64,000 nucleotides of DNA. Source: Escherichia coli (GTDB taxonomy: Bacteria > Pseudomonadota > Gammaproteobacteria > Enterobacterales > Enterobacteriaceae). A program made the translations under genes and the position numbers. A model generated the notes under the pieces. The model was given only the letters and a program-made list of their open reading frames with translations. It was not told the DNA's origin and searched no databases. The stretch lies in NCBI RefSeq assembly GCF_016903815.1, contig NZ_CP069973.1; one strand, given 5' to 3'. Of this stretch, positions 29,428 through 37,993 are shown in pieces (positions within the stretch are counted from its first letter, which is position 1; each line of letters starts with the position of its first letter).

Positions 29428-32400
29428 ATGAGCGGAAAACCGGCGGCGCGTCAGGGCGACATGACGCAGTATGGCGGTAGCATTGTCCAGGGTTCAGCCG
29501 GGGTGCGCATCGGTGCCCCCACCGGCGTGGCCTGTTCGGTGTGCCCCGGCGGGGTGACGTCCGGCCATCCGGTCAATCCGCTGCTCGGCGCGAAGGTCCT
29601 TCCCGGCGAAACCGACCTTGCCCTGCCCGGCCCGCTGCCGTTCATCCTCTCCCGCACCTACAGCAGTTACCGGACAAAAACGCCCGCGCCGGTGGGGAAC
29701 CTCGGCCCCGGCTGGAAAATGCCTGCGGATATCCGCTTACAGCTGCGCGATAACACACTGATACTCAGTGATAACGGCGGCAGAAGCCTGTATTTTGAGC
29801 ACCTGTTTCCCGGTGAGGACGGTTACAGCCGCAGCGAGTCACTCTGGCTGGTGCGCGGCGGCGTGGCGAAACTGGATGAAGGTCACCGGCTGGCCGCACT
29901 CTGGCAGGCGCTGCCGGAAGAGCTTCGCCTGAGTCCGCATCGTTATCTGGCGACGAACAGTCCGCAGGGGCCGTGGTGGGTACTCGGCTGGTGTGAGCGG
30001 GTGCCGGAGGCGGATGAGGTGCTGCCTGCGCCGCTGCCGCCGTACCGGGTACTGACCGGGCTGGTGGACCGCTTCGGGCGCACACAGACGTTCCACCGTG
30101 AGGCTGGCGGCGAAATCACCGGCGTGACGGATGGTGCCGGGCGTCACTTCCGGCTGGTACTGACCACGCAGGCGCAGCGGGCAGAAGAAGCCCGGCAGCA
30201 GGCCTCTTCCGGCGGGACGGAACCGTCCGCTTTTCCTGATACCCTGCCGGGTTACACCGAATATGGCCGGGACAACGGCATCCGTCTGTCTGCCGTGTGG
30301 CTGACGCACGACCCGGAATACCCGGAGAATTTACCTGCCGCGCCGCTGGTGCGCTATGGCTGGACGCCACGCGGCGAACTGGCGGCGGTGTATGACCGCA
30401 GCAATACACAGGTGCGCAGCTTTACTTACGATGATAAATACCGGGGCCGGATGGTGGCGCACCGTCACACGGGCCGGCCGGAAATCCGTTACCGTTACGA
30501 CAGCGACGGGCGGGTGACAGAACAGCTAAACCCGGCAGGCTTAAGCTACACGTATCAGTATGAGAAAGACCGCATCACCATCACCGACAGTATGGACCGC
30601 CGTGAAGTGCTGCACACGCAGGGCGAAGGCGGGCTGAAGCGGGTGGTGAAAAAGGAACACGCGGACGGCAGCGTCACGCAGAGTCAGTTTGATGCGGTGG
30701 GCAGGCTTAAGGCACAGACGGATGCCGCAGGCCGGACGACTGAGTACAGCCCGGATGTGGTGACGGGACTCATCACGCGCATCACCACACCGGATGGCAG
30801 GGCATCGGCATTTTACTATAACCACCACAACCAGTTAACGTCAGCCACCGGGCCTGACGGGCTGGAAATACGCCGGGAATATGATGAATCCGGCCGTCTG
30901 ATTCAGGAAACCGCACACAACGGCGATATCACCCGCTACCGTTATGATAATCCACACAGTGACTTACCCTGCGCAACGGAAGATGCCACCGGCAGCCGGA
31001 AAACCATGACATGGAGCCGTTACGGTCAGTTGCTGACCGTCACTGACTGTTCCGGTTATGTAACCCGTTATGACCATGACCGTTTTGGTCAGGTGACGGC
31101 GGTGCACCGCGAGGAAGGGCTGAGTCAGTACCGCGCATACGACAGCCGTGGACAGTTAATTGCGGTGAAAGACACGCAGGGCCATGAAACGCGGTATGAA
31201 TACAACGCCGCCGGTGACCTGACCGCCGTCATTGCCCCGGACGGCAGCAGAAACGGGACACAGTACGATGCGTGGGGAAAGGCCATCCGTACCACACAGG
31301 GCGGTCTGACGCGCAGTATGGAATACGATGCTGCCGGACGGGTCATCCGCCTGACCAGTGAAAACGGCAGCCACACCACCTTCCGTTACGATGTACTCGA
31401 CCGGCTGATACAGGAAACCGGCTTTGACGGCCGCACACAGCGTTATCACCACGACCTGACCGGCAAACTTATCCGCAGCGAGGATGAGGGGCTGGTCACC
31501 CACTGGCACTATGACGAAGCAGACCGCATCACACAGCGAACGGTGAATGGTGAAACCGCAGAACAGTGGCGGTACGACGAACGCGGCTGGCTGACACAAA
31601 TCAGCCATCTCAGCGAAGGCCACCGGGTGACGGTGCATTACGGGTATGATGAGAAAGGCCGCCTGACCGGTGAGCGCCAGACGGTGCATCACCCGCAGAC
31701 GGAAGCACTGCTCTGGCAGCATGAAACCAGACACGCTTACAACGCGCAGGGACTGGCGAACCGCTGTATACCGGACAGCCTGCCCGCCGTGGAATGGCTG
31801 ACTTACGGCAGCGGCTGGCTGGCAGGCATGAAACTCGGCGACACACCGCTGGTGGATTTCACCCGCGACCGCCTGCACCGGGAAACGCTGCGCAGCTTCG
31901 GCCGTTATGAACTCACCACCGCTTATACCTCTGCCGGGCAGTTACAGAGCCAGCACCTGAACAGCCTGCAGTATGACCGCGATTACACCTGGAACGACAA
32001 CGGCGAACTCATCCGCATCAGCAGCCCGCGACAGACCCGGAGTTACAGCTACAGCGACTCCGGCAGGCTGACCGGCGTCCACACCACCACCTCAAATCTG
32101 GATATCCGCATCCCGTATGCCACGGACCCGGCAGGCAACCGCCTGCCCGACCCGGAGCTGCACCCGGACATCACCCTCAGCATGTGGCCGGATAACCGTA
32201 TCGCCCGTGACGCGCACTATCTTTACCGGTATGACCGTCACGGCAGACTGACGGAGAAAACCGACCTCATCCCGGAAGGGGTTATCCGCACGGATGATGA
32301 GCGGACTCACCGGTACCATTACGACAGTCAGCACCGGCTGGTGCACTACACGCGGACACAATATGCAGAGCCGCTGGTCGAAAGTCGCTATCTTTACGAC

Positions 32401-33615
32401 CCGCTGGGCCGCAGGGTGGCAAAACGGGTGTGGCGGCGTGAACGGGACCTGACGGGCTGGATGTCGCTGTCACGGAAACCGGAAGTGACCTGGTACGGCT
32501 GGGACGGCGACCGGCTGACCACGATACAGAACGACAGAACCCGCATCCAGACGGTTTATCAGCCGGGGAGCTTCACGCCACTCATCAGGGTCGAAACCGC
32601 CACCGGTGAGCTGGCGAAAACGCAGCGCCGCAGCCTGGCGGATGCGCTTCAGCAGTCCGGCGGCGAAGACGGTGGCAGTGTGGTGTTCCCGCCGGTGCTG
32701 GTGCAGATGCTCGACCGGCTGGAAAGTGAAACCCTGGCTGACCGGGTGAGTGAGGAAAGCCGCCGCTGGCTGGCATCGTGCGGCCTGACGGTGGAGCAGA
32801 TGCAAAACCAGATGGACCCGGTGTACACGCCGGCGCGAAAAATCCACCTGTACCACTGCGACCATCGCGGCCTGCCGCTGGCGCTTGTCAGCACGGAAGG
32901 GGCAACAGAATGGTACGCAGAATACGATGAATGGGGTAACCAGCTGAGTGAGGATAACCCGCACCAGCTGCAGCAGCTCATCCGCCTGCCGGGTCAGCAG
33001 TATGATGAGGAGTCAGGCCTGTATTACAACCGCCACCGCTATTATGACCCGCTGCAGGGGCGGTATATCACTCAGGATCCGATTGGACTGAAGGGGGGAT
33101 GGAATTTTTATCAGTATCCGTTAAATCCGGTTCAGTATATAGATTCAATGGGACTGGCATCTAAATATGGACACTTAAATAATGGCGGATATGGAGCGAG
33201 ACCCAACAAACCGCCTACGCCCGATCCAAGTAAGTTGCCAGACATAGCGAAACAATTAAGACTGCCATATCCTATTGACCAGGCCAGTAGTGCGCCTAAT
33301 GTTTTCAAAACATTCTTCAGAGCATTAAGTCCTTACGATTACACACTGTATTGCAGGAAGTGGGTAAAACCCAATCTGACTTGTACGCCGCAGGATGATC
33401 CCCAGTATCCAGGGATGGAGACAAAGACAGCAAGTGATTACCTGCCACAGACAACTTGGCCAACAACTCAATTACCACCAGGATATACTTGTGCAGAACC
33501 CTATTTATTCCCAGACATTAATAAACCCGATGGGCCAGCAACAGCAGGGATAGATGATTTGGGTGAAATTTTAGCTAAAATGAAACAGAGAACATCGAGA
33601 GGAATAAGAAAATGA
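29428..33615 (+). CDS. rhsB: Rhs family polymorphic toxin (PAAR-like N-terminus, YD-repeat core, variable C-terminal toxin tip)
   Basis: 1395-aa track ORF; YD repeats; conserved core end ...[16 protein letters not shown] (DPIGL at 33076-33090); locus position after nikR. Confidence 0.93.
32701..33143 (+). repeat. Rhs core 3' segment, copy 1 of about 443-bp direct repeat
   Basis: Near-identical to 37551..37993 (same reading frame, a few substitutions). Confidence 0.85.
33091..33615 (+). other. variable C-terminal toxin domain of RhsB (after DPxGL motif), function unknown
   Basis: Sequence after DPIGL is AT-richer and Pro/Tyr/Cys-rich with no recognisable catalytic motif. Confidence 0.7.
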
Positions 33616-34181
33616 AAAGAGCTTTGTTCTTTTTGCTGATGATATTCGTTAGTTTTGGTGTTATAGCTAATTGCGAAACACAAGCTAAAGATCAAGATTG
33701 CTTTACCATTTTCACTAAGGGTACTATTTTTTCCGCGTTTCCTGTCTTAAATAATAAAACCATGTGGAGATGGTATCAGAATGAGGACATAGGTGAGTAT
33801 TATTGGCAAACAGAACTTGGTATATGTAAAAATAACAAATTCACACCAAGCGGGGCGAGACTCTTAATTCGCGTCGGATCACTACGCCTTAATGAAAATC
33901 ATGCAACCAAAGGAACGTTGCAGGAGTTGCTAAATACAGCAGAAAAAACGGCGTTTCTCGGCGATCGGTTTAGAAGTTATATAAGAGCGGGTATCTATCA
34001 AAAAAAGAGCAGTGATCCAGCTCAGTTGTTGGCAGTCCTTGATAATTCAATCATGGTTAAATATTTTAAAGATGAGAAGCCAACTTATGCTCGAATGACA
34101 GCACATCTCCCGAACAAAGATGAGTCTTACGAATGTTTAACAAAAGTACAGCATGAACTGCTTCGTAGTGAAGAAAAATAA
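33612..34181 (+). CDS. putative cognate immunity protein of RhsB toxin tip; has N-terminal signal peptide
   Basis: ATG overlaps rhsB stop (ATGA at 33612-33615); 189 aa; [20 protein letters not shown] signal-like N-terminus. Confidence 0.65.
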
Positions 34182-34202
34182 AATCTCTTCCTGAGAAAAT
34201 AA

Positions 34203-34340
34203 ATTAACTATTCGAAAAAATATGTTCTTAATGGGTATCCAGGAACACCAGAAGGTCGATTTGGAAAAATGGATTCCGATGGTAAGAATATCATATATTC
34301 TGAATGTAATGTTTTACCCACAACTTTTGAGATTCGATAG
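34203..34340 (+). pseudogene. possible relic of a toxin C-terminal tail (open frame without start)
   Basis: 45-codon open frame ...YSKKYVLNGYPGTPEGRFGKMDSDGKNIIYSECNVLPTTFEIR ending 10 nt before the next small ORF start. Confidence 0.3.
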
Positions 34341-34349
34341 GTGTAGAGC

Positions 34350-34697
34350 ATGAGAAACTCACTAATATTACTTATTATGATATTGTTTACAATATCACAC
34401 TCAGTATTTGGAAAAGAAAATTCAGTGGAAATTTTAGTAAATAGTCGTGAAATGGCTTTGGAATTATCATATGTTTATATTAAATATATATACGGGAAAG
34501 AAAAAGCAGAATTTCAGAAACCATATAGTATTACAGATGACAATAATTGTTGGAAAATCGAGGGAAAACAACCGAAGACGTTAGGAGGAAATTTTACAAT
34601 ACTAATAGCGAAAAAAGATGGGCAAGCGTTGGATGTAATACACAAAATAATCCACTGTTCAAACGATTCAAATATTTTACCAAGGTGTGTTTCATAA
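34350..34697 (+). CDS. small secreted NTF2-like putative orphan immunity protein
   Basis: 115-aa track ORF with signal peptide; paralogous to ORF 36296..36562. Confidence 0.6.
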   Translation: MRNSLILLIMILFTISHSVFGKENSVEILVNSREMALELSYVYIKYIYGKEKAEFQKPYSITDDNNCWKIEGKQPKTLGGNFTILIAKKDGQALDVIHKIIHCSNDSNILPRCVS

Positions 34698-35279
34698 CTA
34701 TTTTGTGTACAATATGACTCTACATATCGACGAAAAAACCACTTGATTTGACAGGAACACATTCAAAAAAATTTCTTTTTCATTTCAGGAGCGATTTTCA
34801 TCTGTTACTTGAAGTATCTGTGAGATTAAGTGACTCCCCCTAACGTCGTACTAAATAGTAATTACTGGCCATACCGGGAGCAGTATTCGGCGCTTCCCAC
34901 ATGCAGCAGAATAACCGCATCAGCGAAGATGTATTGTATTTTTACTATCACAATGTGTACGGACGGTTTATGGAAAAGAATGAACATTAGATACGCGATG
35001 CGGCGGCAGATTACACGGTTATCACTACGATAGCCAATACTGGCTGGTGCATTACCGCCGTGAACAATAGGACGCCGTACTGCTGGAAATTTCTTACCTT
35101 TATGACTCCCCGCACCGCCGTATCGGGAAACGGGAAGCAGTCAAGATGAGGCTGATATAATGTGTGGAATGCCTGAGTATTTTTAGAATAGAGGGTAATA
35201 TGTTTGATAGAATATATCTTGGTGATCGACCAATAAAAAAATTGAATTTGATTTATGGAGCAAACAAATTAGAATTCAG

Positions 35280-35564
35280 GTGAATTTAATCTCAAGGATA
35301 GCCTATGGTACAACAGAATGGAATTTTTATAATAATGAAGACTTAGAAAATGGTTATTTAGTATTTACCGATGTTACTTTCTTTAATATAATACCTAATG
35401 GCTCCATTCCAGATGATTATATAGTTTCAATAATAACAGATAAAGTCAATGTTGAATGTTTTGAATCAACTATAGTTGCTGTTGGTCAAATTCGAAACAC
35501 AAATGTTGGTGACATTGATAATATTGGTGAATGTCAAATTCTCATCAGGTATAAAGACCGCTAG
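35280..35564 (+). CDS. hypothetical small protein, possibly 3' part of a split gene
   Basis: 94-aa track ORF starting at GTG that overlaps the TGA of a 27-codon ORF (35200..35283) in a GTGA junction. Confidence 0.35.
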   Translation: MNLISRIAYGTTEWNFYNNEDLENGYLVFTDVTFFNIIPNGSIPDDYIVSIITDKVNVECFESTIVAVGQIRNTNVGDIDNIGECQILIRYKDR

Positions 35565-35848
35565 ATTGAGAATAAACTCAAAGAAAAAATAATTGAATAA
35601 CCATGTCAGTTATAGACATTTTAGATGGAACGAACCAGAGAAGGTCATGCCTCCGAGCTGGGTTATGTGGACACGGAGCTTTAGCGTAGTGAACTCAACG
35701 AAGCAAGCCGGAAACCTGCCAGCCCTTATCAGCACGTAAGGGACAACAGCGTAGTACGCAGAATAATCCTACCCACGTAGTATGGACACAGGCCTAAGCG
35801 AGGTTCTGGTTTTCAAATTTTTCAGGAGTTAGATGATTGGAGGAACAG

Positions 35849-36214
35849 ATGATAAGAATCGCATTTTTAATAACCAATAAATTTCTTGAGATAGATAGTA
35901 CCACTCTTGCTGGATATGATTTTAGCGGGATGAATCTACATCGTGCCACCCTCAATGGTTATTGTCTTGATGGGGCGAAATTTGAAAAAACTCATTTAAG
36001 AAATGTAATGATTCAACATACATCAACTAGAAATGCTGTCTTTCACAATGCGGCTCTGATGAATGCTATTCTGAATAACTCAGATTTCACTGGAAGTGAT
36101 TGTAGTAATTCAAGGTCAATAGGTGAAAATTTTAAAGCAATAGATAATCATGGGAAAGATATAATAAATGGAAAAGGATTGTCTAATGTTTGCAAAATAC
36201 ATGACAACGTATAA
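35849..36214 (+). CDS. pentapeptide-repeat protein (possible immunity/target-protection protein)
   Basis: Track ORF 35837..36214; ATG at 35849 preceded by ggagg; tandem 5-residue periodicity ATLNG YCLDG AKFEK THLRN ... AALMN AILNN SDFTG. Confidence 0.7.
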   Translation: MIRIAFLITNKFLEIDSTTLAGYDFSGMNLHRATLNGYCLDGAKFEKTHLRNVMIQHTSTRNAVFHNAALMNAILNNSDFTGSDCSNSRSIGENFKAIDNHGKDIINGKGLSNVCKIHDNV

Positions 36215-36295
36215 GAAAATATTATTCAGAACCTATGTGATTGTATCTTTGTTTTTACATACAACACATGGGCGCAGTGTAATAATATTATTATA

Positions 36296-36562
36296 ATGCG
36301 CAAGTATGAATGTGAGGGGAAATACACCGTTAGAAATTTGGTAAAAAATAAAGCTATAGCATTGGAATTAGCTGAGATGTATGTTAAAAATCGTTATGGG
36401 CATGATGCCGCAGAAGAAGAAAAACCATACAAAATCATGGAATTACCAACAAGTTGGATTGTTGAAGGCACCATTGAATCAGACCAAATTGCTGGTAGGG
36501 TTTTTATTATAGAAATAGGCAAAAATGACGGGAGAATTCTAAATTTTGGCCACGGAAAATAA
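36296..36562 (+). CDS. NTF2-like putative orphan immunity protein, paralog of 34350..34697 lacking signal peptide
   Basis: 88-aa track ORF; aligns by eye with the 34350 ORF (ALELAEMYVKNRYG.../KPY.I...W..EG...DG..L). Confidence 0.55.
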   Translation: MRKYECEGKYTVRNLVKNKAIALELAEMYVKNRYGHDAAEEEKPYKIMELPTSWIVEGTIESDQIAGRVFIIEIGKNDGRILNFGHGK

Positions 36563-36666
36563 GTATGTAAGGATAAACAAACATCGTGTGTGCTGATGGC
36601 AGAGTAGGTGGAGGACTCCAGACAGTCAAACGATAGAAAAAGATAGTCTTTATGGAGGTTCCTGCA

Positions 36667-37509
36667 ATGTCAAATACATACCAGAAAAGAAAGGCAAGTA
36701 AAGAGTATGGTTTATATAATCAATGTAAGAAACTAAATGATGATGAATTATTTCGCTTACTTGATGATCACAATTCCTTGAAAAGGATTTCATCTGCCAG
36801 AGTATTACAGTTAAGAGGTGGTCAAGACGCTGTTAGATTGGCAATTGAGTTCTGCTCTGATAAAAATTATATCCGTAGAGATATCGGAGCATTTATACTC
36901 GGGCAAATAAAAATTTGCAAAAAATGCAAAGATAATGTGTTTAATATTTTGAACAATATGGCATTGAATGATAAGAGCGCTTGCGTTCGAGCTACGGCAA
37001 TCGAGTCAACGGCTCAGCGATGCAAGAAAAACCCAATTTATTCACCTAAAATAGTAGAACAATCTCAAATTACTGCTTTTGATAAATCGACTAATGTCAG
37101 ACGTGCTACAGCATTTGCTATTTCTGTTATCAATGATAAAGCAACAATTCCACTATTGATTAATCTGTTAAAAGATCCAAATGGAGATGTCAGAAACTGG
37201 GCCGCATTTGCAATAAATATCAATAAATATGATAATAGTGATATTAGGGATTGTTTTGTGGAGATGCTTCAGGATAAAAATGAGGAAGTCCGTATTGAAG
37301 CAATAATCGGACTTTCCTACAGAAAAGATAAAAGGGTTTTATCTGTTTTATGCGATGAGTTAAAAAAAAATACTGTTTATGATGATATCATTGAAGCTGC
37401 GGGTGAATTAGGTGATAAAACGCTACTTCCTGTTTTAGATACTATGTTGTACAAGTTTGATGACAATGAAATTATAACTTCCGCTATTGATAAGCTGAAG
37501 CGTTCATAG
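36667..37509 (+). CDS. HEAT-repeat (PBS-lyase type) protein, YibA-like putative Rhs immunity protein
   Basis: Track ORF 36652..37509; ATG at 36667 has ggagg RBS and gives 280 aa; repeated D.N..VR..AA.AL motifs. Confidence 0.8.
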   Translation: MSNTYQKRKASKEYGLYNQCKKLNDDELFRLLDDHNSLKRISSARVLQLRGGQDAVRLAIEFCSDKNYIRRDIGAFILGQIKICKKCKDNVFNILNNMALNDKSACVRATAIESTAQRCKKNPIYSPKIVEQSQITAFDKSTNVRRATAFAISVINDKATIPLLINLLKDPNGDVRNWAAFAININKYDNSDIRDCFVEMLQDKNEEVRIEAIIGLSYRKDKRVLSVLCDELKKNTVYDDIIEAAGELGDKTLLPVLDTMLYKFDDNEIITSAIDKLKRS

Positions 37510-37550
37510 CGTGAGTTGCCTATGCACAGTGGGGGATTCCCGCCGGCACG

Positions 37551-37993
37551 GTGCAGATGCTCGACCGGCTGGAAAGTGAAATCCTGGCTGACCGGGTGAG
37601 TGAGGAAAGCCGCCGCTGGCTGGCATCGTGCGGCCTGACGGTGAAGCAGATGCAAAACCAGATGGACCCGGTGTACACGCCGGCGCGAAAAATCCACCTG
37701 TACCACTGCGACCATCGCGGCCTGCCGCTGGTGCTTATCAGCACGGAAGGGGCAACAGAATGGTGCGCAGAATACGATGAATGGGGCAACCTGCTGAATG
37801 AAGAGAACCCGCAACAGCTGCAGCAACTCATCCGCCTGCCGGGTCAGCAGTATGATGAGGAGTCCGGCCTGTATTACAACCGCCACCGCTATTATGATCC
37901 GCTGCAGGGGAGGTATATCACTCAGGATTCGATTGGGCTGAAGGGGGGATGGAATTTTTATGAGTATCCGTTGAATCCGGTTCAGTATATAGA
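37551..37993 (+). repeat. Rhs core 3' segment, copy 2 of direct repeat
   Basis: Matches 32701..33143; DPIGL motif altered to DSIGL in this copy. Confidence 0.85.

Follow-up and report, generated by a model that had tools for sequence, protein, structure and literature searches.

The stretch of DNA analysed here (referred to as the window) comprises 64,000 nt of Escherichia coli contig NZ_CP069973.1 from assembly GCF_016903815.1. The region of interest is the nikR-rhsB locus, where E. coli strain 7/2 and many other complete genomes match the window with 100% identity. An Rhs core protein of 1395 aa is encoded at 29428..33615. Its stop codon forms an ATGA overlap with a 189-aa ORF (33612-34181), which is YbfC-like, has a hydrophobic N-terminus, gives no Pfam hit and probably serves as the immunity gene cognate to the RhsB tip of this locus. 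This ORF is followed by an NTF2-fold immunity gene, by the split gene described here, by pentapeptide-repeat and NTF2 immunity pseudogene fragments and by yibA, beyond which lie further Rhs fragments, IS1 and ISAs1. The block consisting of the YbfC-like, NTF2 and DUF6258 genes shares 96.8% identity with the orphan array at the rhsC locus of ATCC 8739. The G+C content drops from ~0.6 in the Rhs core to ~0.3 over positions 33500-37400. Such low values are commonly seen in Rhs tips and the immunity genes that accompany them.

Upstream of the split gene, on the plus strand, the 3’ end of an Rhs toxin tip is retained (35127..35186, detected by tblastn and blastn), which consists of the last 19 codons (ETGSSQDEADIMCGMPEYF) and a TAG stop at 35184-35186. 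Directly 3’ of the gene, within 35601-35827, lies an Rhs core-like fragment of ~165 nt with 84% similarity as well as the remnant of an IS3 end (~62 nt, 35766-35827). IS3 copies that match this remnant are found on plasmids and in over 1800 genomes. The next two genes (35837-36562) are broken too. The pentapeptide-repeat gene is present in two fragments, and PGAP marks the NTF2-fold immunity gene as frameshifted, with an 88-aa ORF (36296..36562) still matching the whole Imm-NTF2-2 profile (82 bits). An Rfam search over 33500-39500 returned no structured RNA or riboswitch at E ≤ 0.1. A search for a promoter of the split gene itself gave promoter-like matches that are not in excess (6 compared to 6.8 in shuffled sequences), and the number of terminators found was zero.

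Read from the window, the split gene appears as two overlapping ORFs on the plus strand. ORF1 (35200..35283) starts with ATG and comprises 27 codons up to a TGA at 35281-35283. ORF2 (35280..35564) starts with GTG at 35280-35282 and comprises 94 codons up to a TAG at 35562-35564. The initial annotation had described exactly this pair, a 27-codon ORF with a ribosome binding site (RBS) joined to a 94-codon ORF by a 4 nt GTGA overlap of stop and start, and both the sequence and the ORF list agree with it. A Shine-Dalgarno (SD)-like GAGGG is located at 35191-35195, 4 nt before the ATG at 35200. No separate, properly spaced SD was found in the sequence for the GTG of ORF2, and the only ORFs on the minus strand of this region are 23-26 codons long. 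In the mechanical ORF list, ORF1 begins further upstream, with a GTG at 35164 (39 aa); alignments with other alleles and orthologues identify the ATG at 35200 as the conserved start across the DUF6258 family. PGAP annotates 35280..35564 as a “DUF6258 family protein” (WP_071593670.1) and not as a pseudogene. The RBS region itself contains a homopolymer (35190-35199) that varies in length, being GAGGG in the window and in AST215 and G5-G8 elsewhere. Other alleles read GGGGGG to GGGGGGGG at the SD position, and the length of this G-run alters both the strength of the SD and its spacing to the ATG.

Both ORFs were compared with the Pfam profile of DUF6258 (PF19772; length 136, gathering threshold 25 bits). 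ORF2 alone scores 57.9 bits and matches profile positions 33-97 of 136 beginning with its very first residue. A conceptual fusion in which codons 1-14 of ORF1 are joined to the ORF2 frame at a poly-A run scores 90.3 bits and covers positions 9-96, so that ORF2 and the repaired fusion both fall into the family above the threshold. Codons 1-14 of ORF1 (MFDRIYLGDRPIKK) represent the true N-terminus including the conserved motif IYLGDR, while codons 15-27 are an out-of-frame read-through to the TGA. The window copy hence does not hold a complete DUF6258 domain in one frame, as the motif lies in ORF1 and thereby in the other frame. Since ORF2 hits the profile from position 33 and ORF1 supplies the missing N-terminus, the two ORFs are not next to each other by chance. 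NCBIfam has no model that matches either ORF.

The exhaustive family search at E ≤ 0.001 gave 213 clusters when grouped at 50% identity; most are 125-145 aa long, and the matches begin at about query residue 1-4. In a comparison of 17 sequences I5, Y6, L7, G8, D9, R10 and K13 are invariant. In an alignment of 85 sequences Y6 and S32 are invariant, and G8, D9 and R10 are conserved to at least 90%. This conservation, together with the matches from about the first residues onwards, implies that the N-terminus is core to the family and no optional extension. The AF2 model of the intact protein (pLDDT 92.2, pTM 0.86) is all-beta with nine strands. Residues 1-27 contain strand 1 (11-18) and half of strand 2 (23-33), and a product comprising residues 28-121 would additionally lack the last two strands (120-124 and 130-132). 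The best PDB neighbour reported by Foldseek is an uncharacterised protein of N. gonorrhoeae (5v77, TM 0.52/0.63). A sequence search of the PDB returned no solved relative, neither for the immunity protein nor for the toxin tip. Naming a function from structure was dropped, given the empty PDB search and 5v77 as the only Foldseek neighbour. A literature search returned no papers mentioning DUF6258.

The comparison with homologues, proposed in the initial annotation as a means to find out whether a single fused ORF exists elsewhere, gave a clear answer. Intact alleles of E. coli (ATCC 8739, NCTC9064, O55:H7 and AST215) as well as the orthologues of E. albertii, Citrobacter and Salmonella are single ORFs of 133 codons starting from the same ATG with the same RBS. 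In a DNA alignment of the window with four other E. coli copies, ATCC 8739 shows a run of eight A (A8), a single 133-codon ORF, the same ATG and a TAA matching window positions 35598-35600. In the same alignment the tract is A7 in the window, BL21 and O157 and A6 in UID2309220033. The A7 tract at 35235..35241 (plus strand) is the true frameshift site, exhibiting a deletion of 1 nt relative to A8; in the frame of ORF1 it reads A_AAA_AAA. The reading frames lead to the same place: the frame of ORF2 is open from 35226 and that of ORF1 up to 35283, hence the shift must lie within 35226-35283, where the A7 run is located. A site table of 16 fetched loci lists A8 in 8 intact alleles, A7 in 7 copies besides the window and A6 in 1. 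An identical A7 80-mer is present in 233 complete genomes (exact 80-mer matching), thus the A7 state is no assembly error of the window.

The GTG of ORF2 (35280..35282) corresponds to Val codon 28 of the intact gene. This codon is GTT in 13 of the 13 fetched alleles outside the lineage of the window, and GTG was seen solely in the window, in strain 7/2 and in a window-type contig from an ENA metagenome (L015, 1193-1624). The change from GTT to GTG is synonymous, and the very same G creates the TGA of ORF1. By alignment with the intact gene, ORF2 (35280..35564) represents residues 28-121 of the 133-aa protein. It ends at a second lesion absent from the initial annotation, a TAG nonsense codon at 35562..35564 on the plus strand where all other alleles have TGG (Trp122), whereby the last 12 residues (WIENKLKEKIIE) are lost. 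The authentic gene end is the TAA at 35598-35600, as seen by alignment with intact alleles. DNA alignments, translations and Pfam thus outline one putative RhsI immunity pseudogene of the DUF6258 family at 35200..35600 (plus strand), from authentic ATG to authentic TAA, which would give 133 codons if the run were A8 and codon 122 were TGG. It is very probable that ORF1 and ORF2 are two parts of this single 133-codon gene, now a frameshifted pseudogene. The suggestion that the pair might be an immunity gene split by a frameshift was therefore right about a single gene and a frameshift, but the site lies 40 nt upstream of the GTGA in a tract that is A7 here and A8 in intact alleles. A frameshift at the GTGA junction itself was rejected, as a fusion made there reaches only 79.1 bits on DUF6258 in the Pfam scan, compared to 90.3 bits at the A-run, and it is in the A-run that the alignments show the indel.

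The metagenome contig L015 carries A7 and GTG, still has TGG and shows a further deletion of 5 nt. Hence the TAG arose after the other two changes, and lesions are still accumulating in this lineage. A protein of 143 aa (P0030) considered as a natural fusion of the window type was rejected, since L015 does not translate to P0030 under table 11. This fusion is an artefact, the TGA apparently having been taken as Trp by the gene caller of the source.

The intact gene is most probably the immunity (RhsI) partner of a particular Rhs C-terminal toxin, judging from its position. A gap of 13-15 nt separates the end of a full-length Rhs core protein from an intact A8 gene that follows it in NCTC9064, 2014C-3655 (rhsA locus), O55:H7 RM12579 and AST215. 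This layout, which is typical of rhs-CT/rhsI pairs (PMC3150448), is also found in contig L012, which is not from E. coli. Position directly downstream of the Rhs toxin tip on the same strand, as befits an RhsI protein, was observed at loci L016, L017, L019, L022 and L012. Distant members of DUF6258 are located among Imm15, Barstar-like and ankyrin small genes. The toxin tip is contiguous with the gene in 57 genomes. In the intact tip, DPLGL is followed by ~180 aa that include a PHAHAH motif and end in a hydrophobic C-terminus rich in Cys. Full-length Rhs proteins of O55:H7, O121 and further strains carry this tip, and it gives no Pfam hit at E ≤ 1.

In the window, 13 of the 19 residues of the toxin remnant are identical to the Rhs C-terminus of L012 in tblastn. 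The blastn match to the full-length Rhs of NCTC9064 begins at window position 35129, equivalent to position 4980 of L016, and only the last 58 nt (35129-35186) are kept. The orphan copy of ATCC 8739 has the same breakpoint. As the toxin is deleted except for these 58 nt, the immunity gene is left as a decaying orphan among the other residual modules that follow rhsB. It is well established that rhs loci carry such orphan rhs-CT/rhsI modules (Poole et al. 2011, PMC3150448). In common with these, the small ORF studied here follows straight after an Rhs C-terminal toxin tip in some strains, while in others the same module is promoterless, truncated at the 5’ end and placed downstream of another rhs gene, and Rhs fragments, immunity genes and IS remnants are intermingled at the locus. 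The window differs from those modules in that its toxin part is only 58 nt long and the immunity gene itself is broken by a frameshift and a nonsense codon.

The distribution of tract lengths was determined by exact 80-mer matches in 837 complete E. coli genomes carrying the gene (the counts sum to 819, the remaining genomes differing by other SNPs). On the common background A8 is present in 136, A7 in 414 and A6 in 36 genomes, and a further 233 genomes have A7 on the window’s own background. A7 is thus the majority state (~647 of 837 carrier genomes), and this majority could also be read as a maintained state instead of decay. The relation between allele and toxin was sampled at 16 loci. Among five loci with a full-length Rhs protein, four have A8 and one has A7. 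Where the toxin is broken or orphaned, A8 was seen at three loci (L018, L020, L024) and A7 at one (L021). The single full-length toxin paired with A7 belongs to HCP4S3_I4 (L023; NZ_CM149872.1, 1-1173), in which an annotated full-length Rhs with this tip is followed by the A7 gene, and H144 may be similar. Such a pairing is unexpected if A7 abolishes immunity, barring a sequencing error or immunity from a second copy. HCP4S3_I4 does possess a second copy of the gene, and it is a chromosome-level WGS assembly in which a homopolymer sequencing error is possible. The pairing could accordingly be explained by a sequencing error, by rescue through the second copy or by leaky expression. The same pairing possibly occurs in OkiPb01700 (NZ_AP042594.1).

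Comparison of the intact E. coli gene with that of Salmonella gave a dN/dS of 0.13-0.14, indicating purifying selection on the intact gene. The A7 alleles bear signs of decay. That of O157 differs from ATCC 8739 by 5 nonsynonymous and 0 synonymous substitutions plus a TGA. The window allele differs from that of AST215 by 9 nonsynonymous and 6 synonymous substitutions plus the TAG, and tract length is the sole difference between BL21 and ATCC 8739.

Three other explanations of the split gene were weighed against a broken gene. The first reading offered by the initial annotation, a leader peptide of 27 aa translationally coupled through the UGA/GUG overlap to a functional protein of 94 aa, could draw on a GTGA overlap that is real, on the good RBS of ORF1 and on PGAP, which calls the 94-aa ORF a protein. 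It is contradicted by the comparison with homologues: the GTG start and the overlapping TGA are specific to the lineage of the window, the 13 alleles outside it having GTT without exception, and residues 1-14 of the supposed leader are the invariant N-terminus of the family. Moreover, of the 9 strands about 3 would be missing from the 94-aa product, whose Pfam match begins only at profile position 33, and 213 of 213 family clusters align from about query residue 1-4. We give this two-gene arrangement practically no credence. A phase-variable immunity gene, in which the poly-A tract switches at high frequency between A8 (ON) and A7 or A6 (OFF) so that populations hedge on the cost of an orphan immunity gene, has somewhat more in its favour and is still very improbable. 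The on/off polymorphism of the tract expected of a contingency locus is present in E. coli (A8 136, A7 414 plus 233 and A6 36 of 837 genomes). The close relatives BL21 (A7) and ATCC 8739 (A8) differ in nothing else, O157:H7 SS17 has A8 while other O157:H7 strains have A7, and a second variable homopolymer (G5-G8) exists in the RBS region, but the variation between close strains may partly be homopolymer sequencing error. Reversible switching at high frequency with otherwise intact OFF alleles was not observed: in the lineage of the window 233 of 234 genomes share the identical A7 80-mer, OFF alleles bear additional nonsense and indel lesions that are irreversible, and the tract is missing in other genera. 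A tract of 7-8 nt is also short for a classical contingency locus.

The third explanation accepts the deletion but assumes that A7 genes still yield some full-frame protein, either by a -1 slip of the ribosome on A_AAA_AAA or by RNA polymerase adding an A, such that immunity is retained at a low level and A7 alleles are tolerated, or even kept. The ORF1 frame reads ATA AAA AAA and thereby places A_AAA_AAA in phase. A zero-frame heptamer of the type X_XXY_YYZ is hence present inside the ORF overlap (35235-35241). The A8 protein sequence is restored exactly if the ribosome slips by -1 or the mRNA gains an A, and since both frames are open over 35226-35283, a slip anywhere in this interval would be productive. 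[quoted passage not shown] If a few per cent of full-frame protein protected against an incoming cognate Rhs toxin, this would explain why A7 is the commonest allele and why one full-length toxin is paired with an A7 gene. The tract is however not conserved, since Salmonella encodes the same residues AIKKIE as GCC ATC AAG AAA ATC GAA without any homopolymer, and in all orthologues the gene is one continuous ORF. Downstream of the tract no RNA structure was found (MFE -7 kcal/mol, z = +1.22; 184 of 200 shuffled sequences fold at least as well). Further lesions have occurred in A7 alleles (TAG in the window, TGA in O157, a 5 nt deletion in L015), A6 alleles exist as well, and a slip product of the window would still end at the TAG without its last 12 residues. 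Four of the five sampled full-length toxins have an A8 partner. Productive transcriptional slippage is documented mainly on runs of 8-9 nt or more and is efficient from ~9 nt (PMC1088944), while the tract here has 7. Leaky -1 slippage at A_AAA_AAA in the range of a few per cent is conceivable, but as a designed feature it is unsupported. We regard retention of low-level immunity by this route as very unlikely, and protection by a few per cent of product against an incoming toxin as equally so, although both are less remote than the phase-variable gene.

Two known systems help to place the tract. Programmed -1 frameshifting of the dnaX type employs the heptamer A_AAA_AAG together with an upstream SD and a downstream hairpin. 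The split gene resembles it by its in-phase lysine heptamer A_AAA_AAA and by the string GGTGATC, complementary to the 3’ end of 16S rRNA, 7 nt upstream. It differs in that downstream structure is absent, the SD-like string has a non-optimal spacing and the heptamer is missing from the orthologues. The string GGTGATC (35221-35227) encodes the invariant G-D-R of IYLGDR and also occurs in Salmonella; its conservation would most simply reflect protein constraint. The other system comprises homopolymer frameshift pseudogenes and cases of “savior” slippage (Baranov et al. 2005, PMC1088944; Atkins et al. 2016, PMC5009743), where a one-base change within a poly-A run breaks up an ORF whose product slippage might in principle bring back, as would be the case here. 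In contrast to those cases, the run has 7 nt compared to the ~9 nt needed for efficient transcriptional slippage, it is not conserved, and a second lesion unrelated to slippage follows.

The pair of ORFs results from three changes in the single gene. In the first, A8 became A7 (35235-35241), probably by replication slippage, so that the frame shifts after codon 14, a loss seen by comparison with intact alleles. A/T runs are hypermutable through slippage (PMC1088944). The second is the synonymous change of GTT to GTG at codon 28, which is directly visible in the alleles and which in the shifted frame creates TGA and in the true frame GTG, giving rise to the GTGA by accident. The third, likewise visible, is the change of TGG to TAG that cuts off the last 12 codons. 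Ribosomes starting from the conserved RBS and ATG would then produce a junk peptide of 27 residues. Any product initiated at the GTG is presumably non-functional, as the invariant IYLGDR would be missing from it together with three whole strands (the first and the last two) and half of the second.

Taken together, the split ORF itself is an ordinary case of an orphan gene in decay that was frameshifted at a homopolymer, its GTGA overlap is a coincidence, and it matters very little on its own. The 94-aa fragment is annotated as an ordinary RefSeq protein in several hundred E. coli genomes and should be flagged as a frameshifted pseudogene. Beyond this annotation, the results allow DUF6258 to be put forward as a family of Rhs immunity proteins whose cognate toxin tip is defined and is itself unclassified in Pfam and in the PDB, which makes the two a testable pair.
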